Shown in pieces: positions 2,395 to 37,627 of a stretch of DNA of 37,627 bases. This stretch comes from a virus. Its lineage: Duplodnaviria > Heunggongvirae > Uroviricota > Caudoviricetes. Position numbers and translations under genes: made by a program. The stretch's first letter is position 1; the number at the start of each line of letters is the position of its first letter. Below the pieces are notes generated by a model. That model did no database searches. It saw nothing but the letters and a program-made list of their open reading frames with translations, and had not been told where the DNA came from. The stretch is taken from the IMG/VR virus record IMGVR_UViG_2778261216_000004. One strand, given 5' to 3'.

Positions 2395-2535
2395 TTACTG
2401 CTTACACTGTAAGAACGCCGCAAACTCCGCTCCCCAGAAGCTCATCCGTATTTCACACAGCGAACCGTGCAGCATCCAGATGATGAGGATTACCGTCACG
2501 CAGAATGTGATGGCCGTAAGCGATTTTTGCGACAT
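2395..2535 (-). CDS. hok: Hok/Gef-family type I toxin (small membrane peptide), not in the ORF track
   Basis: 46-aa ORF MSQKSLTAITFCVTVILIIWMLHGSLCEIRMSFWGAEFAAFLQCKQ with an AAAGGAG ribosome-binding site. It has a hydrophobic N-terminus, the conserved SLCEIR motif and an AAF motif as in Hok/HokA. The flanking UTRs are rich in hairpins. Confidence 0.7.
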   Translation of the reverse strand: MSQKSLTAITFCVTVILIIWMLHGSLCEIRMSFWGAEFAAFLQCKQ

Positions 2536-2987: not shown

Positions 2988-3245
2988 AGCGACCTCCCTT
3001 AACGTGGTGCTGCCACCATTCTAAGTTGCCCCAACTCAGATTCCAACAGCAACTCCGCTTTGAGCAAGTCACTGAAGTAGGCTTTGTCGTGGCGAATAAA
3101 TTACATGAGTATCTCAATGATGTCATTTGAGTAGGATTTTAATGTATAACAATAAGGCTTGTGTTAATCTTAAAGTTGAATTGTGGTTTATGAAAAAAAC
3201 AAATGCTGATTCTCAACGAAAATTTCACTGAAATAAGGGTTGTAA

Positions 3246-4304
3246 ATGACAAAAACTATATCGATTTTTAATAACAAAGGTGGTGTTGGTAAAACAACTA
3301 TAATTTGGAATCTTGCAGTATCGCTAGCAGATAAAGGAAAAAGTGTTTTATTAATAGACTTTGATCCCCAGTGTAATCTCTCAATTGCATGTATTGGTGA
3401 TGAGGAATTTTCAGAGTTATTGGAACCTTCAGATGATTTCCCTTTTGGAAAAACGGTTAAAGCATTTGCATTGCCTTACATACAACAAAATACTATAGGT
3501 GAAGTTTATACAACAGAACCTAAGACTAAGACAGATGCAGGCGTTTTGCATATTGTTCCTGGAGACTTTTGGCTTAATACATTTTCAGATATTTTAAATG
3601 TCGGCACTGATGTTATAAGTGGCGCAGGGTTATATCGTTTTATTTTGCCAGATTTGATAACAAAAAAAGCATCAGAGAAAAATGATGTTATTTATGATTA
3701 TGTCCTAATAGATTTACCTCCCTCATTCAATACGCTTGTTAGATCGTCATTGTACTGCTCGGACTATTTTTTAGTTCCTTGCACACCTGATTTATTCTCT
3801 TCATATTGTGTAGGGCTGATTGGTGAGATGTTGCCATCATTTATACGTGATTGGGAGCAGGGCAAGGAAAGATATCTATCAGGTAACCCACGAGATAATA
3901 TTATATCTCAGAAAGGGATGCCTAAATTTGGCGGTTGGATATTCAATGGTTTTGATACGAGAAAGCAAAATGATGTTAAACAAGAGGTTGGTGCAGATGC
4001 AGTTCATCACCGTTCAATAAGAAAAGCGATAGAGGAAAAAATGCTTCCTCAGCTTTCACAGATTTCATCTTACAACGCGGTTCCTAATTTTACTGATTAT
4101 GAACCAGTTGGAAAGATTGAGGACCTCAACGTTATGGCTCCTGATAGTATTATTCAAAATATACCTATTCGCTATTTGTCTCGAGTTAGGCCAACGAATG
4201 CTCTTCGTGGGCGGGGGCAATGGGCAGTTAATCAGGTAGAACTAATGAATGAGATGGCTGGTGAGTATGATCATTTAGCTGAACACATAATAAATAATTT
4301 TTAA
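3246..4304 (+). CDS. Orphan ParA/MinD-family ATPase with an uncharacterised ~150-aa C-terminal extension
   Basis: Deviant Walker A NNKGGVGKTT, the DFDPQCN motif and a Walker B-like YDYVLIDLPP. The gene and its flanks are visibly AT-rich compared with the prophage. No parB-like partner is adjacent. Confidence 0.8.
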   Translation: MTKTISIFNNKGGVGKTTIIWNLAVSLADKGKSVLLIDFDPQCNLSIACIGDEEFSELLEPSDDFPFGKTVKAFALPYIQQNTIGEVYTTEPKTKTDAGVLHIVPGDFWLNTFSDILNVGTDVISGAGLYRFILPDLITKKASEKNDVIYDYVLIDLPPSFNTLVRSSLYCSDYFLVPCTPDLFSSYCVGLIGEMLPSFIRDWEQGKERYLSGNPRDNIISQKGMPKFGGWIFNGFDTRKQNDVKQEVGADAVHHRSIRKAIEEKMLPQLSQISSYNAVPNFTDYEPVGKIEDLNVMAPDSIIQNIPIRYLSRVRPTNALRGRGQWAVNQVELMNEMAGEYDHLAEHIINNF

Positions 4305-4452
4305 CATGCAAAACAAAGTGTGCGCCTTTATAAGGTGCACATTGAGTTAATTTTCTTAATTTCTCCTAAAAAATGAAAGAACTATACATCCAATAAGTAC
4401 ACTCTGTTATTGGTAATATTTACTCATTTTTGATTTAATATCTACAAATCGC

Positions 4453-5553
4453 TCACTCTGTTTCCGCTATCCATTCCGGGATTTTTGCCTCAAGCTCAAG
4501 CTGCGTGGTAAAGCCGCTGTTATCAATGGTGTGCTCGGCTTTTGCAATGATCCAGTCCTGATTGTCGATGTCACTTTTGAAGCCTGTCACCGTGCCATGC
4601 ATTTCGGGGTAGAGTTCTGCGCGTCCACGTGCCAGCGTGATGGAGAATGATGCGGCTCTGCGTTGTAGCTGCTGCCACTTTGCCGCCGCTGCGCGTCTTG
4701 CTGCCTGTTCGTTCTGATAAGTTTTGCGTAACACAAACACGTTGCCTTCCGAACCTTCCATATAGTCACCTTCACGGCTGCTGCTTTTCTCTTTTTTCGG
4801 TTTGCGGCGTTTCACGCTGACTTTTTTCTTTTTCCCGTAATTAAGATCAAGCCAGTAAGCGCGTACCCCCGTATACGCTTCGCGGTCAGCAATGCGGAAC
4901 TGATGGCGATCGCCACTGCTGCGAGTGATGGCGAACGATGGCAACGGCTGGCCCTGTGCGTTCACGCCACCGCCTGGCATGATGAATAACAGATTACCGC
5001 TTTTTACTGTGGTGATTGCGCCCAGCATTTCCGCCATGCGCGTAAGGAAGGATATGTCGCTTTCTTCAGTCTGGTCAGCGTGGTCGATTTCAATATCCAT
5101 CAGCATTTCGCTGATTTGCGGTTTCAGACCATACCGATGAGCGATGGCGGATACCACACGCTCAACGGTCACATCATGCCAGGACACCTCACGTTTAACG
5201 TTAAATTCATCCCGAAAATCTGCGCTTCTGGCTGAAACAGTCAGCCTGTCCGGCGGTCCTTCGTGAGCGATTTCATCAACAATGTAAGTGCCTTTTTCTG
5301 TCAGCGGTTCTCCTTTCCAGCCCATGAGAACCGTCAGGCGCGCGCCCCGTGGCGGTAGCTGCAACTGACCATCCACATCATCCAGCGTGATGGTGAGCTG
5401 GTCCGCCTCAAATCCCCGGTTGTCGGTCAGTGACAGGCTCATCAGGCGCTCTGCCACGCCGGACAGCGTTTTCCCCTCCGCGAGAATATCAAAATCCGGC
5501 ATTTTTACGGGGTCTGTGCTCTGACTGAGCAATTGCATGGTGGTGTCGGTCAT
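4453..5553 (-). CDS. D: Tail protein D (late control gene D family)
   Basis: Matches P2 gpD motifs (LSLTDNRGFEADQL, REGDYMEGSEGNVF). Start set at the internal ATG with an AGGGAGGGA ribosome-binding site rather than the ORF-track start. Confidence 0.85.
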   Translation of the reverse strand: MTDTTMQLLSQSTDPVKMPDFDILAEGKTLSGVAERLMSLSLTDNRGFEADQLTITLDDVDGQLQLPPRGARLTVLMGWKGEPLTEKGTYIVDEIAHEGPPDRLTVSARSADFRDEFNVKREVSWHDVTVERVVSAIAHRYGLKPQISEMLMDIEIDHADQTEESDISFLTRMAEMLGAITTVKSGNLLFIMPGGGVNAQGQPLPSFAITRSSGDRHQFRIADREAYTGVRAYWLDLNYGKKKKVSVKRRKPKKEKSSSREGDYMEGSEGNVFVLRKTYQNEQAARRAAAAKWQQLQRRAASFSITLARGRAELYPEMHGTVTGFKSDIDNQDWIIAKAEHTIDNSGFTTQLELEAKIPEWIAETE

Positions 5554-11286: not shown

Positions 11287-11442
11287 TTTAACGTATGTCG
11301 CCAATTTCCTGATGAAGGTGACTGGCGACTTGCTGTTGTATGTCCTTCTCAGAAAATTGTTTTTGAATAACAAATAACAGGATTTTATAATCTCTTAACC
11401 TTATAACATGTGTGGTCTGAAATAATAATTAAGGAGATTATC

Positions 11443-12015
11443 GTGCTGTCTTACTTAATGGCAATTCACTTTGTTTTATTTGGGGACTCTACTAATTTAA
11501 AAAACTTCTGGAAATATGAAGTAATTCGGCGGAAACGTATGGATATCTGGAGGCTTTTAAGAGAGAAAAAACAGCGTAACCGGAATTTCCTTTTCTGGTG
11601 GCGGTTGGCTAACGAAATGTATATTAATGGTAATAAATTACATAAGAAAGCAGCCAAAAAGTTAAACAGTAAAATAATTAACAAATTTGGTTGTGAAATT
11701 GGATTGGGCGCAAATATTGGAAAAGGGTTAACAATTCCCCATCATGCTGGAATTGTTGTTCATTTTGCTGTTGATGCTGGTGAAAATCTGGTGTTACGAC
11801 AGAATACTACCATTGGACAGATAGATGGTGACATGCCTGGTTCAAGAGTAAAAATTGGTAGTAACGTTGATATCGGAGCTAATTGTTGCATCATTGGATT
11901 ATCACGTAAAATTGGGGATAATGTAAAAATAGGTGCAATGTCTTTTATAAATAAAGATATACCATCGAACTGCACATATATAACTAAAAAGAGCGGTGTT
12001 GTATTGTATAAATAG
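11443..12015 (+). CDS. Hexapeptide-repeat (left-handed beta-helix) acyltransferase, accessory gene
   Basis: Repeats of the IG.N..IG type resembling WcaB/CysE-like acetyltransferases. GTG start with an AAGGAG ribosome-binding site. Visibly AT-rich. Sits at the position of P2 Z/fun. Confidence 0.7.
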   Translation: MLSYLMAIHFVLFGDSTNLKNFWKYEVIRRKRMDIWRLLREKKQRNRNFLFWWRLANEMYINGNKLHKKAAKKLNSKIINKFGCEIGLGANIGKGLTIPHHAGIVVHFAVDAGENLVLRQNTTIGQIDGDMPGSRVKIGSNVDIGANCCIIGLSRKIGDNVKIGAMSFINKDIPSNCTYITKKSGVVLYK

Positions 12016-12645: not shown

Positions 12646-13548
12646 CTACTTAATATCAGAGACAGAATATTGTTTATTGAGCGTATGGGTGTGAGCACCA
12701 ATAACGATGCTACTTCTGTGGCTATGTGCGCCAGAGGTGACATTACCTACGGGATTTTCTGGATTAATCCGGTGTATATGCGAATCAGGGCGAAACCGGT
12801 TATTAGCCTGATGTTGTATCAGTACATCATCAGCCTGATGTTCAGGGTTAATACAGACCTGCCCGGAACGTGAGCAATACGTCCGATAATCGCCGCATCC
12901 AATATATTTAGCATCCGCATAACGGCAAACAGAATTACCCGGACAGTATGCATATGTGCCAAATACTGCCGACTGGCGGGATTGTGCGTATTCCCAGTTA
13001 ATTGATTCTGTTTTTTTATTAAAGTTATCCCAGGCCTGCTTCATCTGGCGGGCAACACTTTCAAACGGTACCTGACCACATCCAGCCCCCATCGCAGGGA
13101 ATACCACCGTCTTTATTTTCCTGTCTGTCGTTGCGTTTTTATTGTGCTGAAAGATGGCAAGCAGAGCGGCCCAGGTTGCGTTATATACAGCGTCTGTTCC
13201 GTCAATTGTCAGCGGAACACGCATTGTTGGCGCATGTACCAGCCAGGGGTGATGATTATGCCCCGTTTCAATAACAAACGCAGATCCTACAGGCTGCTCG
13301 CCTAGATATTCACGAAGAATATGATTCTGAACGCGGGACTGTAACTGAGTACCGAAGAATGCGGTAATGGCGGCATCAACACCGCCATCCATCAGGCCGA
13401 AACTATTTGCCGCACTTACCATACAGTCAAATTCTCTGATTGTTTCAAATGGCTTTCCGACAATATTCACATTATCTGCGTTTGCAAATACCCGCTTAAA
13501 TGCTTCAGCCATTTCTGTTACTGGTGCAGAAAGAATGAGCGTAATCAT
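12646..13548 (-). CDS. Macro-domain protein with a Cys-rich, His-x-His C-terminal tail
   Basis: [19 protein letters not shown] and [10 protein letters not shown] fit the macrodomain NAAN...GGGV.GAI signature. Its ATG overlaps the H stop (ATGA) and has a GAGG ribosome-binding site. C-terminal [18 protein letters not shown] resembles the H tip repeats. Confidence 0.7.
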
Positions 13549-23752: not shown

Positions 23753-25504
23753 ATGATTCAGGACGCTTTTGTGCGCCAGCGTGCGCGGCAACTTTACTGG
23801 CAGGGTTATCCGCCCGCAGAAATATCACGTCTGATGGGAATAAACCCGAACACGATTTATGCGTGGAAAAAACGCGACCAGTGGGATGAAACGCCACCCG
23901 TGCAGCGTGTCACGCAGTCCATCGATGCGCGCCTCATCCAGCTTACTGAAAAACAGAATAAAACAGGCGGTGACTTTAAGGAAATAGACCTGCTGACCCG
24001 GCAGCTTAAAAAACTGCATGATGGCCAGCCGGATGCGACGGTCACAGGAAAGAAAGGCCGGGCGAAAAAACTCAAAAATCATTTCACGCCGGAACAGATT
24101 GCCGCACTGCGGGAAAAAATCATCAGCAGGCTGGAGTGGCATCAGCGGGGCTGGTTTGACTCCCTGACCCTTTGCAGGGAAGCCGGGATACGTAACAGGA
24201 TGATCCTGAAATCCCGACAGATTGGGGCGACCTGGTATTTTGCACAGGAAGCTCTGCTGATGGCGCTGCGTGACGATGTGGCGCAACCTTACCAGCGTAA
24301 CCAGATTTTTTTGTCTGCGTCGCGTCGTCAGGCGTTCCAGTTTAAAAGCATTATTCAGAAGGCCGCGGCTGAAGTTGATGTGGAGCTGAAAGGGGGCGAT
24401 AAAATCATCCTCTCCAACGGCGCAGAGCTGCATTTTCTCGGCACTTCTGCTGCGTCGGCACAGTCCTATACGGGCAATTTTTATTTTGATGAATTTTTCT
24501 GGGTCAGTCGCTTTGCTGAACTGCGCAAGGTAGCTGGCGCTATGGCAACCCTCAGCGGACTGCGGCGCACCTACTTCTCCACGCCATCCACCGAAACGCA
24601 CGAGGCATACGCCTACTGGAACGGCGACCGCTGGAACGAGAAAAAGGCCTCGCATAAACGCCAGCGTTTTTCTGTGGACTGGAAAACGCTGCATAACGGG
24701 CTTATCTGCCCTGACCGGACGTGGCGGCAAATTGTCACGCTGGAAGATGTGGTTAATCACGGCTGGAAACACACCGATATTGACGAAATCCGTGATGAAA
24801 ACACCGAAGACGAGTTCCTCAATCTCTATATGTGTGAGTTTGTTCGCGAAGGGGAATCGGCATTTAACCTGAATATCCTGATTGGCTGCGGTGTTGACGG
24901 ATACGACGACTGGAAAGACTGGAAACCTTTTGCTCCCCGCCCGATGGGGAATCGTCCGGTATGGATTGGGTATGACGCAAACGGCAGCAGTGGCAACGGC
25001 GACAGCGGCGCTGTGTCCGTGGTGGTTCCTCCGGCTGTTCCTGGTGGCCGTTTTCGAACGGTGGAGACGCGACGCGTTCAGGGGCTGGAGTTTGAAGAAC
25101 AGGCCAGAGTCATTGAAGAGTTCACGTATCGCTACAACGTGGAACACATCGGCATTGATGTGACGGGCGGGAACGGGGAGGCTGTTTATCAGATAGTGAA
25201 ACGGTTTTTCCCTGCTGCTATTCCGTACACCTTCACGCTGTCATCAAAACGGTCGCTGGTACTGAAAATGCTGCAAATAATGCGTGCCGGGCGGTGGGAA
25301 TACGATCGCGCCGAACGCGAGCTGGTCGCGGCCTTTAACGCCGTGCGTAAGGTGAAAACACCGGGCGGCTTTATCACTTACGAAACGGACCGCGCGAGGG
25401 GGATCAGCCACGGCGACCTTGCGTGGGCAACCATGCTTGCTGTCATTAACGAACCGATTGGCGGCGAAGGAGAAAACGAGCGTTTCACGGTTATGGAGTT
25501 CTGA
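23753..25504 (+). CDS. P: Terminase large (ATPase) subunit P
   Basis: 583 aa, divergent from O as in P2. Confidence 0.9.
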   Translation: MIQDAFVRQRARQLYWQGYPPAEISRLMGINPNTIYAWKKRDQWDETPPVQRVTQSIDARLIQLTEKQNKTGGDFKEIDLLTRQLKKLHDGQPDATVTGKKGRAKKLKNHFTPEQIAALREKIISRLEWHQRGWFDSLTLCREAGIRNRMILKSRQIGATWYFAQEALLMALRDDVAQPYQRNQIFLSASRRQAFQFKSIIQKAAAEVDVELKGGDKIILSNGAELHFLGTSAASAQSYTGNFYFDEFFWVSRFAELRKVAGAMATLSGLRRTYFSTPSTETHEAYAYWNGDRWNEKKASHKRQRFSVDWKTLHNGLICPDRTWRQIVTLEDVVNHGWKHTDIDEIRDENTEDEFLNLYMCEFVREGESAFNLNILIGCGVDGYDDWKDWKPFAPRPMGNRPVWIGYDANGSSGNGDSGAVSVVVPPAVPGGRFRTVETRRVQGLEFEEQARVIEEFTYRYNVEHIGIDVTGGNGEAVYQIVKRFFPAAIPYTFTLSSKRSLVLKMLQIMRAGRWEYDRAERELVAAFNAVRKVKTPGGFITYETDRARGISHGDLAWATMLAVINEPIGGEGENERFTVMEF

Positions 25505-26550
25505 TGAGCAGAAAAAATAAAAAAGTGCGCATGAGTTCACGCATTGATCTCGCTGATGCGCTCAGGAAAGAATCATCGCTCAGTGCATTCACATTTGATG
25601 GTCCTTATCGCCTGACCGGGCATGACCTGCTGGACAATATGTACTGTGCTGATAACGGGCGGTGGTATGAAACCCCGGTGGACTGGTACGGTCTGGCAAG
25701 AGCAGCCCGGCAAACGTCCTGGCATCAGTCTGCGCTTTACTTTAAGCGCAATGTATTACTCGGTTGCTACATCCCGCACCCGCTGCTTTCCCGGCAGGAT
25801 TTCTCGGCGCTGGCGCTGGACTGGTTTGTGTTCGGTAACGCATTCCTTGAGCTTCGAAGCAATATGCTCGGCGAACCGCTTAAATTACGGCACGCCCTGG
25901 CGAAATACATGCGACGCGGAAGCGATCTTGAATCATGGTGGTATGTGCAGGATGGCAAGGACGCGTTCCAGTTTCGCCCTGGCAAAGTGTGCCACCTGAT
26001 GAATCCGGACATTAACCAGGAAATTTACGGCATGCCGGAATATCTTGGCGCATTACTCTCGGCCAGCCTGTCTCATTCGGCGGACATGTTCAGAAAACTG
26101 TATTACGACAATGGATCCCACGCCGGGTGCATCATCTACATCGGTGCAGCGCAGGTAAACCGCGAAAGCATGGACTCCCTGAAAGAAACGTTACAGGGTG
26201 CGCGTGGTGGTGGTGCATTTAAAAACGTGCTCATTCATGCGCCCAACGGGGGCAGAGAGGGGGTGCAAATTTTGCCGTTCCAGCAGATCACCGCAAAGGA
26301 TGAGTTCATGAATGTTAAGGCGGCATCCCGTGATGATGTGCTGGCTGCGCACCGCGTTCCGCCGCAACTGATGGGGGCGATGCCGGGCGAAAAAAGTGCG
26401 TTTGGTGATGTGGAGAAGGCTGCGCGGGTTTACGCAATTAACGAGCTGATGCCCGTCATGGAGGCCATGAAGCACATCAATGACTGGCTTGGCGAAGAGG
26501 TGATCAGCTTTAACCCTTACGCACTGTTAGACACCCAGCCCACATCCTGA
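25504..26550 (+). CDS. Q: Portal protein Q
   Basis: 348 aa, start overlaps the P stop. Confidence 0.9.
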   Translation: MSRKNKKVRMSSRIDLADALRKESSLSAFTFDGPYRLTGHDLLDNMYCADNGRWYETPVDWYGLARAARQTSWHQSALYFKRNVLLGCYIPHPLLSRQDFSALALDWFVFGNAFLELRSNMLGEPLKLRHALAKYMRRGSDLESWWYVQDGKDAFQFRPGKVCHLMNPDINQEIYGMPEYLGALLSASLSHSADMFRKLYYDNGSHAGCIIYIGAAQVNRESMDSLKETLQGARGGGAFKNVLIHAPNGGREGVQILPFQQITAKDEFMNVKAASRDDVLAAHRVPPQLMGAMPGEKSAFGDVEKAARVYAINELMPVMEAMKHINDWLGEEVISFNPYALLDTQPTS

Positions 26551-26973: not shown

Positions 26974-27001
26974 ATTGTGCAAATTTGTGCACTATTGTGC
27001 A
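26974..27001. repeat. Three TTGTGC(A) direct repeats phased at exactly 10 bp
   Basis: aTTGTGCaaa/TTTGTGCact/ATTGTGCagc, followed by the hairpin AGGGCGAT-N8-ATCGCCCT at 27003-27026. Confidence 0.5.
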
Positions 27002-27294
27002 GCAGGGCGATGTGCGATTATCGCCCTGGTTTGAGGGGGATCAGGTGTTATTTTTATCTGTCGTCAGTGGGCTAAACCATCCACAATTTACATCGCATGA
27101 CTGATGCGTTCTGTCCTCGTGTTTCTCCTGCCACAATGCTTTTCCGCCAGCCTTTATGATGGCTCTTTCAACATCCCGCTCGTATCGCAAGGGCTGAAAT
27201 ACGTCATTAATGAAATATTCGCTTATGTCCGGAAGCGATACTGCAAAATTATTTGTTTGTTGCGCCGTCCTGCTATGCAGCAAAGCGGCATGCT

Positions 27295-27630
27295 TTAATG
27301 CGTCCTGTGCTTTCTGGAATTTAAGTGCATAGTCAGTGGCGATTTTTCCAGTTCAGCGATTCGGTTGTCTTTGGTTTCCAGCCAATCAAGTAGCGCCAAT
27401 ACTTCAGGATCCCCGACATCCAACACTGTTACGCGTGATTTTTCATAATGTTCGTCAGCAAGAGTTCGGCCAATTTTGAAATCTCCATCATCACCATAAC
27501 CGGAGCAGGCATAAACAACCTGTGCTCCAGATATTCGCTGAATTGACATTTCCTCGCCGCAAATAGGGCATTTCGGTACTGGCACAGGTGAATAACGTTC
27601 ACGTAATGCCTGATAGTTGATTTCGCTCAT
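27295..27630 (-). CDS. Hypothetical protein with a CxxC motif, third gene of the parM/parR-like operon
   Basis: 111 aa, AAGGAG ribosome-binding site, CPICGEEM motif. No family assigned. Confidence 0.5.
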   Translation of the reverse strand: MSEINYQALRERYSPVPVPKCPICGEEMSIQRISGAQVVYACSGYGDDGDFKIGRTLADEHYEKSRVTVLDVGDPEVLALLDWLETKDNRIAELEKSPLTMHLNSRKHRTH

Positions 27631-27693
27631 TAAGTCGTTCTCCTTGTTTATGTTCTGAGGTGGAGAGCAGGGCGAACTCGCCCTGATGTTGTG

Positions 27694-28005
27694 TTATTCA
27701 GGAAATAACGCCCGGATATTTCCGGCCATCTGACTGGTTATCTGTGCGGTTGATACTGGCTGTGATGCGGGGCGTTCTGTCCTGGTTTGTGTCACTGATA
27801 ACGCTTCATCACCAGCCCATGCAGCCAGTCGATAAGCCTCTGCCGGATTCATTTTCAGAAGTGCCAGCCCGGCCAGAAAAGCCACGCGTTGGCCGCTTTT
27901 GCGGGCTTCTGGTGTAAGGCTGTCCAGCCAGGCGCATGCTTCTCCTTCGTTCTTGACGGCGGTGGGCTTCAGATAGAAACTTATCCGTCTGGTTGGAGTC
28001 GTCAT
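27694..28005 (-). CDS. parR: ParR-like DNA-binding adaptor
   Basis: RRISFYLKP...ARKSGQRVAFLAGLALL resembles R1 ParR (RRTIAFKLNP...RAALTAGLAL). AGGAG ribosome-binding site; the ATG lies 4 nt after the parM-like stop. Confidence 0.55.
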   Translation of the reverse strand: MTTPTRRISFYLKPTAVKNEGEACAWLDSLTPEARKSGQRVAFLAGLALLKMNPAEAYRLAAWAGDEALSVTQTRTERPASQPVSTAQITSQMAGNIRALFPE

Positions 28006-28009
28006 TGGT

Positions 28010-28969
28010 TTACTCCTTGTCCATTGCGTACAGCCCATTAACTAGAGCAAACTGTGGCACCCCGTCCGCGATGAAAGTCGCATTAACTCCGCAGGCTTCG
28101 CGGATAGCGGGTGCCACAATCTCCGCCCCTCCACCGACAACCATCACCCGCCCGTAACCCGAAAAACCCGCCAGCGCGCGGATCACGCGTTGTTTCAGTG
28201 TTTCTTCCTTTTCACGAATTACCGCCATCAGGCTGGCGTAATGCGCGTCATTGTGGATGTGCTGGCGCAGCCAGGCTTCATCATGGCGATGTTCGATAAT
28301 GGTATTGGCGATGTGGTGACTGGTGCGCATACCGTTAGTGGCCATCACCGACAGTACGGCATCGGCCATCAGAGAAACGCCCACGTGTGGATCGCAAAAC
28401 ACCTGGCTGATACCTGCCAGTTGCCCCTGAACCTTTGCCACATCCAGCGTGGTTCCGCCCAAATCCACAATCAGCAGGGATTCAAACGGACTCATGTCAG
28501 CCAGTGCCTTAAAGCCAGCCGGAATGGATTCAGGCATAACCCGTACGTTACGGATAGTGAATGCTTCGCCGTTCTGGTACTCCACCGGGCGCATGACGTT
28601 CGCTTTTTTGCGGTTGATGTTGGCCATGTCCGGCTGTGCGTTTGTATCGAAATACTCGCTTAGTGGCAGGGTGACAACCACATCCACTTCCTGTGGTGTG
28701 ATGCCTGATTTGACCAGCGCGTGATGAATGGCAATTATATTCACATCGCTGTACTGGTATTGCGTGTCGGTCGTCTGGACAAAGCGATCGCTGACCGGAT
28801 CAAAACCATAGCGCACGCCATCAAGCATGTAGTTCGCGGGCTGCGTGCCACCGAACGGCGCAGACCATTCCGACTTGAAGCTGTTCGGGCTGATGGCGTT
28901 GCGGCGTTCGCCGTTCTCAGTCCATGCCAGCTTGATGTTGGTGGAGCCGTCGTCGATACAAATTTTCAT
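28010..28969 (-). CDS. parM: ParM/StbA-like actin-like ATPase
   Basis: MKICIDDGSTNIKLAW...ISPNSFK...YQYSDVNIIAIHHAL...LIVDLGGTTLD...VGGGAE closely follows R1 ParM motifs (MLVFIDDGSTNIKLQW..., IIDLGGTTLD, VIGGGAE). Confidence 0.8.
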   Translation of the reverse strand: MKICIDDGSTNIKLAWTENGERRNAISPNSFKSEWSAPFGGTQPANYMLDGVRYGFDPVSDRFVQTTDTQYQYSDVNIIAIHHALVKSGITPQEVDVVVTLPLSEYFDTNAQPDMANINRKKANVMRPVEYQNGEAFTIRNVRVMPESIPAGFKALADMSPFESLLIVDLGGTTLDVAKVQGQLAGISQVFCDPHVGVSLMADAVLSVMATNGMRTSHHIANTIIEHRHDEAWLRQHIHNDAHYASLMAVIREKEETLKQRVIRALAGFSGYGRVMVVGGGAEIVAPAIREACGVNATFIADGVPQFALVNGLYAMDKE

Positions 28970-29006
28970 GTCGCTTTTCCTTATGTTGATTAATTAATCG
29001 GTTACA

Positions 29007-29112
29007 GGATTTTTAAATCCCGCTTTTGCCTGTTTTGTGCGCGCTTCATATATCGCGGCACGTTTTTTGCTCATTTACGGGATTTGTGAATCCCGTTTCT
29101 GTCTGTTTTTTG
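29007..29112. repeat. Two ~33-bp direct repeats, each a hairpin with a T-rich tail, spanning the A stop and the parM-like upstream region
   Basis: GGATTTTTAAATCCCGCTTTTGCCTGTTTTGTG (29007-29039) and GGGATTTGTGAATCCCGTTTCTGTCTGTTTTTTG (29079-29112). Confidence 0.45.
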
Positions 29113-31869
29113 TTCCCAACGGGTCAGGCCACCCCGCAGCAGGTCTGCTTTGCGGTGGGCGCGTTCAGTGGTTTCACTGATTCTCTGTGCGTGCTCTGCG
29201 TCACGGATGGCGCGCAGCATGTCAGAAAGCACGGTAACGGGTGTCTTCATGGTGTTCTGGTCTTGCTGAAGTGTGGATGCCAGGCGTGCGGCGGCTTCGG
29301 GGTCTGATGCCCCCAGCTGTTCCAGATAGCTGGCGACCGGGTTATGGCGGATCTCCGTGCTGCTTACGCCGTGATTACGGCTCAGGCGCTGCCAGAGCTG
29401 CGTGATTCGGCTGTCCGGGCGGGGATCCGGTTTGCGTACAATTTCAAATCCCTGCGGTGCAATGATGCTGCCGTCAACGTACAGACTGCCGCCCCGTAAC
29501 AGGTGCTGCATCTGTTGTTCACCGATATGCAGGCCGAGAGATTCAGCAGACTCCCGCCATTCTTTAGCGAGTAATTCGTGGTTATCAGGCAAAGGCCGCT
29601 GCTGTTTGCGGCTCTGTGTCCAGCCCTGCATTTCATCACTGCTATTTTTTGCCTGTTTGTCACGAAGCGAACGCATCAGCGCCCGGCGTTCGTGCCGTTT
29701 CAGTGAGCGCATCCATTCGTTCACTTCAACGCCGTCAGGGAGCTGCGGCCACGGTGCTGGCCGTTCTTCCGGCTGTTCTGTCCCGTTGTTGTCCGTTTCC
29801 TGTACACGGGGACAGTTATTGCCACGAGTCCAAGGGGCGGCAGGGCCGCCCTGAAGGTCAAAACCATTTTCGTGGGCGCTGTCTTCCGGTTCTGGTTTAC
29901 GTCTTACCAGCTTCCAGTTATCCGGATGCGTGCACACACGGGAGGATTCCCCGATGAGTGGTGACCAGATCCCGTAAATCTGTACGCTCTGTTCGCCGTA
30001 ATCGTTCAGCTCATCTGCGAGGTCGTAGGCGGTGCGAATCAGGTAGTCTTTGCGTGGAACAAGCACGCCGCCCTGTTTCTCTATGTAGGTGGCAAAACAT
30101 CCGGCATCAGCGGCAGCAAGAACCGCATCCATTGCGTCATTTTCCAGACGTTGCGGTCCCTGTGGGTTACGTGCCATCTGACAGGCAAGGCGGCGCAGTT
30201 CACGCCACACCTGACGGGAAGGGATGCCAAAGAACTGGAACTGGCGGACCCGGTGAAGGCGCGCCCAGCCGATGGCGCGTTCCACGCTTTCTGCCATCGT
30301 CTTTCCTGATTCGTCGTCGATGCGCGGTTTGCCTGTTTTCGGGTCAATGCCATCCACGGCGCGGCTGTCCAGGTTCTTTCCGATGTAGGTGGCGATGTAG
30401 CTGGTTGGTGTGCCTTTTGAGCCGTCGACGTACTCTGCCTTAAAGCGCGGAGTTATGTCATTGCCCAGCTCGTGGCGGTCTTCGCGAATGGCAATATCAC
30501 GGGTGATGTCCACGATGCTGTCGATTTCTTCAGGATGTGCAAAGACCATCATGTGCCAGTGCACGGTGCCGTCATGGTGAGGCTCCACCGTGCGAATGCC
30601 ATACCAGCGCAGGCCGTCGCGGTTCAGTTTTTTGCGGACCGCCTTAAAAAACGTGTTAACCAGGTAATCGCTGGAATCGCGCATGGTGGCCCCGTTCCAT
30701 TTGGGGTTCGGATGACCGTTCTCCGTTGTTGCGTGGTACTTCGAAGGGGTAGTGACAGTCAGAAACACCGCTTTGTCGCCACGGGCTTCGGCCAGAAGTT
30801 CCAGCCCCTTCATGGTGGCCATCATTTCTGCCTTACGGTGAACCGGGTTACTTACTCCCGCGTAATACACCGTCTCGAGATCAATCGTGAACCCGTCTTC
30901 ATTTTCCAGCATGAAACTTTTCAGGAAATCGCGTGTTTTCTCGCGCTGTGCGCGAAACTCGCTTAACGCGTCCTGGCTCAGATAGGGTGATGTTTTTCTG
31001 GAAACCAGACAGGCGGCGCGGAGTTGTTCTTCCCGCCACTCGCAACGTAACAGCCACAGTTTGCGTTTCCACCATTCTGCACAGGTCAGGCGAAGGATTG
31101 CGCCCGGCAGCAGCTCCGTGTCCGGTTCGTTCCTCCGGTCTTTGTCTGTTGTCAGTGCGTCATAATGTGGAGGCATGGCGTGCAGGTGTAACGCCATGCG
31201 GGCCAGCATCTGATACGCCTTCAGCGTTACATCCATGGTCAGTTCGCCATCGGTCGCGCCAAAGCCATCGCAGAGTTTTTCGAAGGTGCTGCTGAACATC
31301 GCCGCCGTCATGGTGGCCAGTGTCTGTATCTGGTGTTTGTTGAGCTGCGGCAGGTAAAGCAAATCGTCCAGGCGTTCGCGTCCGGCAAGGGAGCGATAAC
31401 CCTGTGTCAGCCAGCGGTGATCGGTGCGCTCCAGACGTTCGAATATTTTGCGCAGGTTTCCGCGCGCGTAGCGTTCAGCCTGCCAGCTCTTTTTGCCTTT
31501 CTGACGATCGGCTTCCTGTTTTTTGCGCAGGAAGGAGAGGTGGCGAATAAGCGGATCGCGCAGATAGGACGGCAGCAGGCGCAGCGAGGCCATGGCTTCA
31601 TCCACCGCGCCGCGTGCCTGTTTTCTGGCATCTCCTGCCAGTGTGATGGTTTTGTCCTGTTTTTCCTGTGCGTCCAAGCTTTTATTAATCAGGTTGCCCA
31701 GCGGCGTTGCGGAGAACGCCGCATCAGCCATTTCCTGGCGGCGCTCGTTCTCTACCCGGTAGGCATCCAGCCAGGAGGAAAGCGCGGATTCAGGAGCGGG
31801 GATCCCCGTTCCTTCACGCCCCACTGCGTGGCGCGGTTGTTGCCAGTCCCTGATGTACTCTGCCGTCAT
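29071..31869 (-). CDS. A: Replication initiation protein A (rolling-circle nickase family)
   Basis: 932 aa, large early protein in the P2 gene A position. Confidence 0.8.
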   Translation of the reverse strand: MTAEYIRDWQQPRHAVGREGTGIPAPESALSSWLDAYRVENERRQEMADAAFSATPLGNLINKSLDAQEKQDKTITLAGDARKQARGAVDEAMASLRLLPSYLRDPLIRHLSFLRKKQEADRQKGKKSWQAERYARGNLRKIFERLERTDHRWLTQGYRSLAGRERLDDLLYLPQLNKHQIQTLATMTAAMFSSTFEKLCDGFGATDGELTMDVTLKAYQMLARMALHLHAMPPHYDALTTDKDRRNEPDTELLPGAILRLTCAEWWKRKLWLLRCEWREEQLRAACLVSRKTSPYLSQDALSEFRAQREKTRDFLKSFMLENEDGFTIDLETVYYAGVSNPVHRKAEMMATMKGLELLAEARGDKAVFLTVTTPSKYHATTENGHPNPKWNGATMRDSSDYLVNTFFKAVRKKLNRDGLRWYGIRTVEPHHDGTVHWHMMVFAHPEEIDSIVDITRDIAIREDRHELGNDITPRFKAEYVDGSKGTPTSYIATYIGKNLDSRAVDGIDPKTGKPRIDDESGKTMAESVERAIGWARLHRVRQFQFFGIPSRQVWRELRRLACQMARNPQGPQRLENDAMDAVLAAADAGCFATYIEKQGGVLVPRKDYLIRTAYDLADELNDYGEQSVQIYGIWSPLIGESSRVCTHPDNWKLVRRKPEPEDSAHENGFDLQGGPAAPWTRGNNCPRVQETDNNGTEQPEERPAPWPQLPDGVEVNEWMRSLKRHERRALMRSLRDKQAKNSSDEMQGWTQSRKQQRPLPDNHELLAKEWRESAESLGLHIGEQQMQHLLRGGSLYVDGSIIAPQGFEIVRKPDPRPDSRITQLWQRLSRNHGVSSTEIRHNPVASYLEQLGASDPEAAARLASTLQQDQNTMKTPVTVLSDMLRAIRDAEHAQRISETTERAHRKADLLRGGLTRWEQKTDRNGIHKSRK

Positions 31870-31875
31870 AGTGAT

Positions 31876-32241
31876 TTACTTCGTCATGCCATTCAGGGTG
31901 TCGCGGCAGACTGTAGCCAGCCGCTGAATTTCCAGCACGGTGTCTTCTGTGTCGGCATGGCGATGTGTGATGCGGATGCTGTCGGCAATCACATCGACGA
32001 TTGCAGAGGATGGGCGCTGGTAAATGCCAATAACGGACGGGGTGCCACCTTCAATGCGGTAAAGCCTGTAATTTCCCTCGTGGCTGTCAATCATGTAGCG
32101 ACCATCAATAACAATATTTCCGTCAGCGAGCTGCGGTACAGGCAGGGATTTCAGGTACATGTCATAACGATCACGCACGCGAGCGGCAAGATCACGTTCT
32201 GTGTTGAGCAGGTATTCAAGAAAGTCGTTGGCGAGAATCAT
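31876..32241 (-). CDS. Hypothetical early protein
   Basis: 121 aa, AGAGGA ribosome-binding site, immediately upstream of A. Confidence 0.55.
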   Translation of the reverse strand: MILANDFLEYLLNTERDLAARVRDRYDMYLKSLPVPQLADGNIVIDGRYMIDSHEGNYRLYRIEGGTPSVIGIYQRPSSAIVDVIADSIRITHRHADTEDTVLEIQRLATVCRDTLNGMTK

Positions 32242-32313
32242 TGCGGCAATCCTCTTGTTACAGATGTGCGAAGGCCTCCCGCCGCAAGGTGCAGGAAAGG
32301 CCCGGAACAGGAG

Positions 32314-32544
32314 TTAATGGAGTTTGTTTTGCTGCTGGATGAGCTGTTGAAGCTCGTGCAGATCATCCGCCAGATAGCTGAAAACAGAGGCGGAATAAAT
32401 GTTTGATAGTGCGTGGCTGCGCTCATGCAGCATATTGATGTGCATGATTTGCGCGACGCGTGATGCGCGGGAAAGTCTGCGGTTGATTTCAGTCTGGATG
32501 TGACGACGCTCCGCGATAGCGCGGTGTGGTTTGCGGTTTGCCAT
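32314..32544 (-). CDS. Hypothetical small early protein
   Basis: 76 aa, weak ribosome-binding site. Confidence 0.4.
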   Translation of the reverse strand: MANRKPHRAIAERRHIQTEINRRLSRASRVAQIMHINMLHERSHALSNIYSASVFSYLADDLHELQQLIQQQNKLH

Positions 32545-32723
32545 GGTGTGGCCCCTTGTGTAGTAAGTTGTGAAAACTCACCATCCAGAGCTGCGAAACT
32601 GTGGGTGGCGAGACGTACGAGGTTCGCAGTACCGGCTACACAAGAACCCGGCCCGACCGAAGTCGGCCCCGTACGCCCCGCCATAATTCTGACGCGAAAA
32701 AGACGTGGCAATACAGTACGCAC

Positions 32724-32744
32724 AAAAAAACCGCTGGCGCGGTT
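32724..32744 (-). terminator. Rho-independent terminator on the minus strand inside the early region
   Basis: On the minus strand, AACCGC-gcca-GCGGTT followed by TTTTTTT. Confidence 0.55.
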
Positions 32745-32930
32745 GTGCGCTTGTGTAGTCAGCAGGCTGCGAAACCCGGCACCCGTTTTATGAGATGCAG
32801 CGGAAATGTAACCTGACTGATTGCGGCATGGCAAGCGGTTTTTGTGTTGCGTACAGTGGTGTGTATAATCGCGGCACAAAAATAGAACGTGCCGAAGGAT
32901 ACTGGCATTTATTGACAATGGAGGTCGCTT

Positions 32931-33398
32931 ATGTCTGTTGCTATGGAGCATGCAGATCAAGAATTCGTTTTCCATCTGTGGTACAGCTACTGGCTGGAAG
33001 AGATGGTTTTCATACTCAACAACAAGGCCGCTTTTGTGCTGCGCTCTGGAGCCTTGATTGCTGCGGTGTTGTCTTTTCTTCTGATTGAGTTCCCTGCCCT
33101 GATGAGTCTTTGCGGACTGGTGTTTTTTGGTTTTTCCTGGTTTTGCAGCAAGTGTGAATTCGTCGCCGAACTGGCGTGCTGGCAGAAACAGAGCTATCTG
33201 CGTCTGATTACGCAAAGGGATTTTATGACCACTGAACGCCTCACTGAGCGCATTCTGCATCTGGAAGAAACGAACAGCGCATACATGAAAGCGATTGTCA
33301 GGCCCGCAAAAAACAAAGCGAGTGCATCTGTTGGGTTGTCTGCCAGCGAACATTTGCGTTACTCCGAAAGGTTAATTTGCTGGTTGTGCAGTTTCTGA
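32931..33398 (+). CDS. Membrane protein with its own promoter, opposite in orientation to the early operon
   Basis: 155 aa with 2-3 hydrophobic segments and a coiled-coil C-terminus. GGAGG ribosome-binding site and a TATAAT -10 box at 32866-32871. Confidence 0.55.
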   Translation: MSVAMEHADQEFVFHLWYSYWLEEMVFILNNKAAFVLRSGALIAAVLSFLLIEFPALMSLCGLVFFGFSWFCSKCEFVAELACWQKQSYLRLITQRDFMTTERLTERILHLEETNSAYMKAIVRPAKNKASASVGLSASEHLRYSERLICWLCSF

Positions 33399-33463
33399 AC
33401 TGTGAAGAGCCTGTTGGCATCTCGGAAATGATGATGGATGTAATTCCTGGTGGTTGATGGTGC

Positions 33464-35802: not shown

Positions 35803-36090
35803 TTAAAGCCCCAGCCACAACAACCATGCATCGCGGCGTTCTTTCGGCTGATCAAAAAACGCTTTGCGCATACCTGCGTTAAATGCTGGCAGATATACCC
35901 AGTTTTCTGATGCTCGCGTCTTCACTGAACCTGGTTTCACAAAGTCAATCGTTGGTAACTTTGCAGCGTCAATCATGGTTCTGACGGTTGATTCTTTGCG
36001 ACCAATCATCTTGGCAAATAGTTGATATGGCACCGCTTCAAGTGGATATGGTGCTACCTGAATGAACCCCTCAAGCTCTGATTCGCTCAT
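35803..36090 (-). CDS. cox: Cox-like excisionase and lysis-lysogeny regulator
   Basis: PYQLFAKMIG...WVYLPAFNAG...WLLWLGL matches P2 Cox (IPYQEFAKLIG...YWVYLPAWNNG...WLMWLGL). AGGAG ribosome-binding site. Confidence 0.8.
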   Translation of the reverse strand: MSESELEGFIQVAPYPLEAVPYQLFAKMIGRKESTVRTMIDAAKLPTIDFVKPGSVKTRASENWVYLPAFNAGMRKAFFDQPKERRDAWLLWLGL

Positions 36091-36205
36091 TGTGGTAATC
36101 TCCTTAATTCGTCCAAATGGCCCAAAATGGCTTATATAGGCTTATTTTGGCTATTTGAATGTTTTGTATTACATGTAACCCAATAGCGTGGAGTTTAGAT
36201 CACAT
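36091..36205. promoter_or_regulatory. Divergent C/cox switch region with direct-repeat operators
   Basis: Repeats AAATGGCccaAAATGGCttat and GGCTTATTTTGGCTATTT between the divergent cox and C starts. Confidence 0.45.
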
Positions 36206-36526
36206 ATGATCCATAAATCAAGCCTTGGAGAAAAACTTCGCCTGATTCGAGAGGCAGAGGGATTGTCACGTAGAGAGATGGAAGAGGTGACAGGGGTATC
36301 TCAAAACAATCTCAAAAATTATGAAATATTGGGAAGAATGATACCTGGAGAAACGCTACTCCTGATTTTGAATCATCCTCGTTTTCGGAAGTATTCGGAT
36401 TGGGTGATGTTTAATCAAACTAATGCTGCGACGGGGCAGATTGCTCCGCCTCTCTCTCTTGATGGCTTCTTCGATTCGGAGGGCGATCAGGTTTCAACCG
36501 AAACAAACCAAAAATCACCCCGCTAA
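36206..36526 (+). CDS. C: Immunity repressor C (helix-turn-helix)
   Basis: EKLRLIREAEGLSRREMEEVTGVSQNNLKNYE; overall layout like P2 C, upstream of int. Confidence 0.75.
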   Translation: MIHKSSLGEKLRLIREAEGLSRREMEEVTGVSQNNLKNYEILGRMIPGETLLLILNHPRFRKYSDWVMFNQTNAATGQIAPPLSLDGFFDSEGDQVSTETNQKSPR

Positions 36527-36607: not shown

Positions 36608-37627
36608 TTGGAGGGCTTCGCAATGTCAATTAAGAAGCTCGAAGATGGTCGTTATTTGCTGGACATCAGGCCGAACGGACGCAAGGGAAAGCGCGTGCGT
36701 AAGGTATTTGACAAAAAATCGGTAGCGGTGGCCACTGAACGCTACATCATGGCGAACGCTGAAAAGCGGGAATATATACAGGGCTACCGTGATCGCCGAA
36801 CGCTAAATGATTTGCTTGAGTTGTGGTGGATGTATCACGGTCAACACAGGCGTAAGGCGGAAGAAGACCGAAAACAACTGCGCAACATAATCAATGAGCT
36901 TGGCGCTGATATGCAGGCTGTGGATCTTGATAAGCTGAAAATTATCGCGTGGCGTTCTCAAAAGATAGCTGATGGATTGAAACCGTCATCTGCTAACAGG
37001 TACATGAATCGGTTATCCGGAATGTTTACCGTGCTGAAAAAAATAGGTCTTTGGGATGCAGAACATCCGGTAAGGGGAATTTCTATTCTTTATGTATCTC
37101 CACGAGAAATGGCGTTCCTGTCACAGAAGGAAGTTGCGTTATTGCTCGATACATTGGAGGGCGATTACTGGCGTGTTGCTCTTTTGTGTTTAAGCACAGG
37201 AGCGCGCTGGAGTGAAGCCTGTAAGCTCCGTGGTGAACAGATAGTTCATAACCGAGTGACGTTTCTTGAAACCAAAAATGGCCGAAAGAGAACAGTGCCA
37301 ATTTCGCAGGCAGTTTGTGAGGCGATCAAAACCAGAGAAACAGGCGGCTTGTTTGAGGTGAAGTACCGGGAATTCTGCTTGGCGCTGAAAAGAGTTAAGC
37401 CCGATTTACCAAAAGGCCAGGCTGCACATGTGCTGCGGCATACGTTCGCCAGCCATTTTGTGATGAACGGAGGAAACATTATTGCGCTTCAGAAGATTCT
37501 TGGCCACGCAACCATTCAGCAAACAATGGCATATGCACATTTTGCACCGGATTACCTGCAGGATGCGGTGGCCCTTAATCCGTTGAAAGGTGGCGTGAGT
37601 GTCCACGCAGTGTCCACGGGGGATTAA
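36608..37627 (+). CDS. int: Tyrosine integrase, P2 family
   Basis: Matches P2 Int (SIKKLEDGRY, IKPSSINR, LCLSTGARW, HVLRHTFASH, YAHFAPDYLQDA). The stop codon is at the window edge. Confidence 0.9.
   Translation: MEGFAMSIKKLEDGRYLLDIRPNGRKGKRVRKVFDKKSVAVATERYIMANAEKREYIQGYRDRRTLNDLLELWWMYHGQHRRKAEEDRKQLRNIINELGADMQAVDLDKLKIIAWRSQKIADGLKPSSANRYMNRLSGMFTVLKKIGLWDAEHPVRGISILYVSPREMAFLSQKEVALLLDTLEGDYWRVALLCLSTGARWSEACKLRGEQIVHNRVTFLETKNGRKRTVPISQAVCEAIKTRETGGLFEVKYREFCLALKRVKPDLPKGQAAHVLRHTFASHFVMNGGNIIALQKILGHATIQQTMAYAHFAPDYLQDAVALNPLKGGVSVHAVSTGD

Follow-up and report, generated by a model that had tools for sequence, protein, structure and literature searches.

A predicted type II (ParMRC) partition cassette adjoining replication gene A in a P88-like prophage of Escherichia coli

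Background

Why does a phage that integrates into the bacterial chromosome carry segregation genes of the kind found on the low-copy plasmid R1? The question is raised by a 37,627-nucleotide stretch of viral DNA (Caudoviricetes; IMG/VR record IMGVR_UViG_2778261216_000004), referred to as a whole as the window, in which three co-oriented minus-strand open reading frames (ORFs) are flanked on one side by replication gene A (29071-31869) and on the other by portal and terminase genes (23753-26550). A preliminary description, made from the letters of the DNA, had read these ORFs as an actin-like ATPase, a small ParR-like protein and a CxxC protein forming one module at the position of P2 old/tin, and had proposed that the module may allow the prophage to persist as an episome, may interfere with resident plasmids or may have been repurposed. 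In this study, we report that the first two ORFs constitute what is, judged by protein family and gene order, a bona fide type II (ParMRC, R1-family) segregation cassette, and we weigh the roles that such a cassette could have in this phage.

The presence of parMR in P2-like phages is already known. Novelty in this respect is low, a putative plasmid partitioning system having been noted by Rousset et al. 2022 in the gpA-gpQ interval of about one in four P2-like phages (PMC9122126); moreover, the PhiSM paper lists a partition protein as cargo (PMC6456863), and the genes are named by RefSeq and in deposited P88-type genomes. A functional study of ParM in P88, Xuanwuvirus or CP-933T was not found in the literature, and nothing specific was found there on expression of the cassette in an enterohaemorrhagic E. 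coli ciprofloxacin data set. What is added here is the division of the locus into a constant parMR part and a variable slot, an element of two boxes with a fixed spacing of 73 bp, a count of chromosomal and plasmid locations, and the pseudogene status of the third ORF.

The ParM and ParR proteins

The gene next to gene A, parM (28010-28969, minus strand), encodes an actin-like segregation ATPase of 319 amino acids (aa), identified by profile matches and by sequence matches to solved structures. Both Pfam domains of the family were found (StbA_N, PF06406, E=3.7e-82; C-terminal domain, PF21523, E=1.3e-68), as was a match to PHROG 691, annotated 'partition protein', and solved structures of R1 ParM were matched over the full length of the protein (PDB 1mwk, E=1.2e-92). 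Alignment with R1 ParM (46% identity over 318 aa) showed that the motifs DDGSTNIK, PESIPAG, DLGGTTLD and GGGAE are intact and aligned with those of the plasmid protein. The ParM/StbA motifs from which the ATPase had first been recognised are thus borne out by Pfam, PDB and the R1 alignment. The gene is under strong purifying selection, with a median pairwise ratio of nonsynonymous to synonymous substitution rates (dN/dS) of 0.076 and a maximum of 0.17.

The second gene, parR (27694-28005, minus strand), encodes the adaptor. The longest ORF at this place spans 27694-28038 (114 aa); the likely start is the ATG at 28005, on which RefSeq and the alignments to Pfam and PHROG agree and which gives a protein of 103 aa. 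This start lies 4 nt past the parM stop, with an AAGGAG at 28013-28018 within the 3' end of parM. ParR matched the Pfam family Plasmid_stab_B (PF10784, E=4.2e-23) over positions 1-71 of the 72 in the profile and PHROG 2515, 'partition protein' (E=2.4e-57), and a search of PDB sequences with ParR gave no match. The family matches and the 4-nt spacing agree with the small ParR-like protein reported directly after parM. Profile searches, in sum, assign the ATPase securely to the ParM family and the adaptor to the ParR family, both of the R1 type, and none of them put the ATPase outside the ParM family.

In ParR, the N-terminal segments RRISFYLKP and LAGLAL and the C-terminal NIRALFPE tail are conserved and the linker between them is variable. 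The two segments and a tail of the form N-x-x-x-(L/F)-F-P were common to the ParR alleles and the plasmid homologues aligned, and the N-terminal segments and an NIxx(L/F)FPE tail are kept even in ParR alleles that are 52% identical overall. The gene evolves faster than parM (dN/dS ~0.33), with changes concentrated in the linker. This is the pattern expected if a flexible linker joins a head that binds DNA to a tail that binds ParM. At least three ParR allele classes were observed, mutually only about 52% identical (E. albertii, O157:H7 TW14359 and one further locus). They adjoin ParM proteins that are 98-99% identical and stand behind near-identical upstream boxes, and recombination breakpoints at the parM/parR junction are therefore indicated.

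Compared with ParMRC (parA/stb) of plasmid R1, ParM is alike over its full length, with all nucleotide-binding motifs and both Pfam domains; ParR belongs to the same Pfam family and has the conserved N-terminal segment and C-terminal tail; and the gene order is parC-parM-parR, with parC being a candidate here. ParM and ParR therefore both show the features of a type II system, and it is the carrier that departs from the type, being an integrating P2-like phage rather than a low-copy plasmid. Further differences are that ParR is shorter, that a strong promoter specific to the cassette is probably missing, and that two 16-bp palindromic boxes 73 bp apart stand where R1 has two clusters of 11-bp iterons.

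A candidate parC upstream of parM

Two 38-nt direct repeats, 82% identical to each other and each containing a GGG-N10-CC(C/T) palindrome, lie upstream of parM on the minus strand. The distal repeat (29075-29112; box CGGGATTCACAAATCCCG), the candidate distal parC, is inside the 3' end of gene A, and the proximal repeat (29002-29039; box GGGATTTAAAAATCCT), the candidate proximal parC and operator, follows with its box 73 bp from the distal one. Hairpin-containing direct repeats had been noted here before and are borne out, the distal copy falling beyond the interval originally given for the module. The core motif of the boxes was found at these two places only in the window, and 0 matches were obtained in 100 shuffles.

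The position and spacing of the boxes are conserved. Relative to the parM ATG, the starts of the boxes lie at -125 and -52 in the E. coli type, at -131 and -59 in Plesiomonas and at -128 and -55 in Hafnia; their spacing is 73 bp in 73 of 76 P88-type loci and 72-73 bp across the three diverged lineages. In the 76 P88-type loci, the GGGA...(A/T)CCC arms are conserved and the inner bases vary. After the proximal box comes a conserved leader of the form TTAATTAATCAAC...TAAGGA; this leader (GATTAATTAATCAACATAAGGAAAAGCGAC; 28970-29001, minus strand) carries the parM ribosome-binding site TAAGGA and is AT-rich, possibly with a weak -10 element. It is kept in the E. coli-type, Plesiomonas and Hafnia loci, and hardly varies among 51 haplotypes.

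That the boxes form an RNA hairpin or a terminator of gene A was considered and rejected: they lack a following T-run, and the differences among alleles are not of a compensatory kind. A protein-binding site in DNA is therefore more likely. The two boxes are likely to be the centromere (parC) to which ParR binds and, at the same time, the operator of the cassette.

Genomic context and distribution

The region is 100% identical to parts of E. coli chromosomes of bovine isolates, and phages of the genus Xuanwuvirus (P88, P884B11, PhiSM and others; Peduoviridae) are 95-99.5% identical to it. On these matches, the window is an integrated P2-like E. coli prophage of the P88 (Xuanwuvirus) type. The annotation of a near-identical genome places the prophage between pdxB and flk, and pdxB is the integration site of PhiSM in K-12 (PMC6456863). 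P88 and PhiSM are inducible, plaque-forming phages that can lysogenise K-12 (PMC5285337, PMC6456863). An integrase (36608-37627), a repressor-type helix-turn-helix protein (36188-36526) and Cox (35803-36090) are encoded in the window, and the genes identified from Cox to the third ORF are all on the minus strand.

Of the essential genes in the early operon, the last is gene A (minus strand), which encodes a 932-aa protein of the P2 gpA family (PF05840, E=1.7e-130). The cassette comes immediately after it and has the portal and terminase genes on its other side, the flanks being as first described. The gap between gene A and parM is 76-101 nt, on the same strand, and a promoter and terminator scan revealed no terminator-like site between the two genes on the coding strand. 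From the shared strand, this gap and the missing terminator, parMR is most likely transcribed together with the early replication operon. Past the cargo gene and before the cos/portal region, a terminator-like hairpin followed by a T-run (26977-26992, minus strand) is the probable end of the transcription unit.

Gene A is adjacent to parMR in 78 of 80 IMG/VR loci, and the other two start at a contig end. The cassette was present in 1307 of 5426 complete E. coli genomes, the same type of gene A being found in 1443; its places in these genomes were chromosomal in 1453 instances and on a plasmid in 2. The order gpA-parM-parR-cargo-portal also holds in P2-like prophages of Plesiomonas, Hafnia, Serratia and Enterobacter, the ParM proteins of which are 54-62% identical to that of the window, and one or two small ORFs sometimes precede parM in these diverged prophages. 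All ParM homologues examined that are at most 52% identical lack gene A and occur in a plasmid or an integrative and conjugative element (ICE) context. Among 50,697 phage records, only those of the Xuanwuvirus type and the P1-like phage D6 gave matches.

On plasmids (72,556 in PLSDB), ParM at 95% identity or more occurred in six, of which only one is a phage-sized circle. At the DNA level, seven records matched the region; two are phage-sized and the rest, of 228 kb-1.4 Mb, carry an embedded prophage. ParM at less than 60% identity was found on more than 5000 plasmids, and apart from the records with a whole prophage the plasmid ParMs are at most 52% identical. The candidate parC region was found on plasmids only where the whole prophage is present. 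A 44-kb plasmid of Apirhabdus with a '61%' ParM was considered as a P2-like phage-plasmid and rejected, as it belongs to the ordinary Rep3/ParA/UmuDC plasmids and its parM is broken. Neighbour-joining places the ParMs linked to gpA in one group nested among plasmid ParMs. From this distribution, parMR is read as an old, vertically inherited part of one P2-like lineage (P88/Xuanwuvirus and relatives), not a recent accessory gain.

The third ORF and the variable slot after parR

The third ORF (27295-27630) is present as first described: it encodes 111 aa with a CPIC at residues 21-24, and an AAGGAG lies 9 nt upstream. Its proposed membership of the module did not hold, the ORF being instead a piece of variable cargo. 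The 111 residues are the N-terminal part of an Ead/Ea22-like protein (PF13935, E=2.2e-25), and the ORF at 27041-27283 is the C-terminal part of the same gene, out of frame. Compared with an intact allele of 196 aa, there is a single-base difference, one A being missing from an A-run at about 27348, so that the family domain is matched and the reading frame is broken. RefSeq likewise annotates 27041-27630 (minus strand) as a frameshifted ead/Ea22-like pseudogene.

A comparison of 55 loci in which ParM is 99-100% identical revealed 30 arrangements of the interval from the parR stop to the portal gene, with lengths of 991-4169 bp; in many loci homology breaks right at the parR stop. A GC-rich hairpin between parR and the cargo gene (CAGGGCGAGTTCGCCCTG; 27668-27685, minus strand), shared by some relatives, marks the start of this slot. 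Its cargo in relatives includes AbiL, IetA with a subtilase (IetAS), RmrA and PDC-M11A and, in more distant relatives, HicAB or a KAP NTPase. As the cargo varies here while ParM stays 99-100% identical, the P2 old/tin-type defence hotspot begins after parR. The earlier assignment of the whole module to a hotspot for accessory and defence genes is therefore right for the slot and wrong for parMR. The cassette shares the genomic interval of the P2 gpA-gpQ hotspot, but it is the constant part beside gpA; variable presence and matches to defence families are properties of the post-parR slot in relatives and not of parMR.

Possible roles of the cassette

We lean towards a role of the cassette in the segregation or positioning of the phage's own, transiently extrachromosomal DNA, a reading that follows from the position in the early operon together with the precedents of srpMRC and AlpAC. 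Because the cassette is at the distal end of that operon and no terminator separates gene A from parM, its expression is most likely when the operon is on. In the mechanism that we propose, ParM and ParR would be made along with the products of the genes from Cox to gene A, in the phase when the phage genome is expected to be an extrachromosomal circle under A-dependent rolling-circle replication. This circle would exist after infection, before integration, and again after induction and excision. The two GGG-N10-CCC boxes, spaced by 73 bp, would serve as a parC that overlaps the parM leader and would be occupied by ParR dimers; ParM filaments would be captured at their ends by the conserved C-terminal ParR tail, and ATP-driven polymerisation of ParM would push the phage circles apart, both cell halves or daughters thereby retaining a copy. 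The expected benefit would be that lysogeny is established more reliably and that the excised element is lost less often, like the benefit provided by SrpMRC for SXT/R391. Repurposing of the module for transient extrachromosomal phases, one of the possibilities raised at the outset, is thus plausible.

The best functional analogy is srpMRC of the SXT/R391 ICEs, the expression of which is limited to the time around excision and by which the excised form is lost less often (Carraro et al. 2015, PMC4489591). Both are actin-type partition cassettes on a normally integrated element that undergoes rolling-circle HUH replication only when excised, and srpMRC is expressed with the excision functions as parMR, to judge from gene layout, would be expressed with the replication genes. 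They differ in that SrpM is only distantly related to R1 ParM and SrpR lacks a recognisable ParR domain (PMC4489591), whereas the cassette studied here is a close member of the R1 family, and in that the carrier is an ICE in one case and a phage in the other.

Several observations weigh against a role in segregating phage circles. The promoter scan gave no consensus sigma-70 promoter before parM, and the expression timing therefore rests on operon position only. The putative centromere has only two palindromic boxes, compared with about ten 11-bp iterons upstream of plasmid-type parM, and the Serratia and Enterobacter phage types arrange their repeats differently (inverted). Bootstrap support for the phage ParM clade is moderate (61/100). 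Gene A of the window has a 1-nt indel at about 29113-29123 relative to the alleles of P88, E. albertii, Salmonella and others, by which the last ~17 residues are changed and the stop falls at 29071 instead of the 29046 of intact alleles; RefSeq flags gene A as frameshifted in an identical genome. Because of this 3'-end indel, this particular prophage element may be impaired, and the frameshifts in gene A and ead together suggest either early prophage decay or sequencing errors. Finally, parMR is intact in degraded prophages, namely in O157:H7 beside an IS3 and at a locus with a truncated gene A; its benefit could thus be independent of phage propagation, with a role at the level of the host.

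As the main rival to this reading, it is conceivable, but in our judgement unlikely, that ParM and ParR instead organise the lytic cycle, positioning or spreading the replicating circles and aiding replication or packaging, so that burst size and not inheritance would be affected. Such a function would suit a cassette that comes straight after the replication gene in the early operon and is not separated from it by a terminator, and the cassette is kept in all the diverged P2-like relatives examined. However, most P2-like phages (P2, 186 and others) do not have it, which shows that P2-type replication and packaging, the latter of monomeric circles, can proceed without it. The model for a lytic organiser is AlpAC/alpS of the Corynebacterium glutamicum prophage CGP3, in which the actin-like AlpC and its adaptor AlpA are induced early and are needed for efficient viral replication (Donovan et al. 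2015, PMC4446434). AlpAC resembles the present cassette in residing in an integrated prophage and in combining an actin-like protein with a DNA-binding adaptor for its own upstream sites, and it acts on circular phage DNA. It differs in belonging to another actin-like family and an actinobacterial host, and in that a role in replication efficiency has been demonstrated.

We find it quite improbable that the cassette makes the phage a facultative plasmid prophage, that is, a stable low-copy episome, as was proposed in the preliminary description and suggested as a possibility by Rousset et al. 2022 (PMC9122126). A complete P88-like genome, integrase included, has been filed as a 34.5-kb circular plasmid of E. 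coli (NZ_CP148288.1), and the prophage of the window also has a Hok/Gef gene and an orphan ParA-family ATPase, both of which would fit an episomal state. Against this stand the 1453 chromosomal and 2 plasmid places of the cassette, the presence of just one or two phage-sized circular records in PLSDB, the integrase and integrated state of the phage, together with the integration of PhiSM at pdxB (PMC6456863), and the fact that no theta-type plasmid replicon was seen; spontaneous induction can also yield a circular contig. The circle NZ_CP148288.1 (34,461 bp) encodes the integrase, parMR and all structural genes, and could be either a true episome or an assembled induction product.

Phage-plasmids such as P1 (ParAB), N15 (SopAB) and D6 (StbA) also carry plasmid partition genes on a phage, and the P1-like phage D6 has a ParM homologue that is 47.5% identical. 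These phages lysogenise as plasmids, unlike the phage studied here, in which the integrase, the location between pdxB and flk and chromosomal residence in 1453 of 1455 places speak against a lysogen maintained as an autonomous replicon.

A use of the cassette as a weapon, with ParR, ParM and parC disturbing the partition of resident plasmids (incompatibility) or acting in anti-phage defence, is highly improbable. The interval from gene A to the portal gene is a known defence hotspot (PMC9122126), and ParR has several divergent alleles and a fast-evolving linker. Yet the cassette is constant, and the 30 types of cargo among the 55 loci occur only after parR. Interference with resident plasmids, which had also been put forward at the outset, finds no support, as the parC region is present on plasmids only with the whole prophage and the plasmid ParMs, at most 52% identical, have upstream iterons of another type. 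A PADLOC scan of ParM, ParR and the third ORF gave no match to known defence families, and the reading of the cassette as a defence system was dropped for this reason.

Least credible of all is a non-functional relic of an old plasmid-phage recombination, merely carried along, for although no phenotype has ever been reported and the candidate parC is minimal, with two boxes, the dN/dS of parM is about 0.08, intact ORFs in conserved order are found in lineages with identities as low as 54%, and the position and spacing of the boxes are conserved.

Other features of the prophage

A Hok/Gef family toxin gene (46 aa; 2395-2535, minus strand; PF01848, E=3.7e-07) lies near the attR end and is a second plasmid-type maintenance determinant in the same prophage. 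Plasmid R1 carries both parMRC and hok/sok. The orphan ATPase of the ParA/MinD family (352 aa; 3246-4304, plus strand; AAA_31, E=8.7e-30) is encoded in a low-GC island (3001-4500, GC 0.35-0.37) between late control gene D and ogr. No ParB-like partner was seen for it, and its weak PADLOC match to PDC-M28B covers the P-loop only.

On the minus strand, a gene for a Mu Com-like zinc-ribbon protein (1962-2168) overlaps the start of an N6/N4 DNA methyltransferase gene (1226-2017), the product of which falls into the PADLOC class of type II or orphan methyltransferases (E=2.5e-63); the layout resembles com-mom, with another enzyme. Between the tail-fibre and tail-fibre assembly genes, a macro-domain protein (300 aa; 12646-13548, minus strand; PF01661, E=8e-19) is encoded; close by, in a low-GC stretch, lies an ORF resembling hexapeptide acetyltransferases (11410-12015, plus strand), for which a near-identical genome has the annotation serine O-acetyltransferase. 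In the early operon, an ORF of 371 aa (32238-33353, minus strand) has a weak match to the Ash family (E=9e-06). It is situated in the sole stretch (32848-33446) that does not align with the otherwise 96-99% identical OkiPb01696 prophage, and this is another variable spot of the early region.

Conclusions

For the window itself, the outcome is mostly one of clarification, the locus consisting of ordinary annotated genes and a broken cargo gene. For the mining of the gpA-gpQ hotspot, parMR is a fixed boundary marker and not cargo. The cassette is nevertheless widespread, occurring in 1307 of 5426 complete E. coli genomes, beside one of the best-studied defence hotspots. More tentatively, as something possible rather than probable, it may be a working actin-type machine for the phage's own rolling-circle DNA, which would either make it likelier that an infected or transiently derepressed cell line retains the phage or permit a facultative plasmid-like carrier state if integration fails; in that case, a phage with a concealed extrachromosomal phase, governed by a minimal two-box centromere, would be present in about one in four E. 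coli genomes. If the cassette does act on transient phage circles, as we favour, the need for active partition known from the SXT/R391 ICEs would extend to tailed phages, and models of the outcome between lysis and lysogeny would gain an extra parameter.

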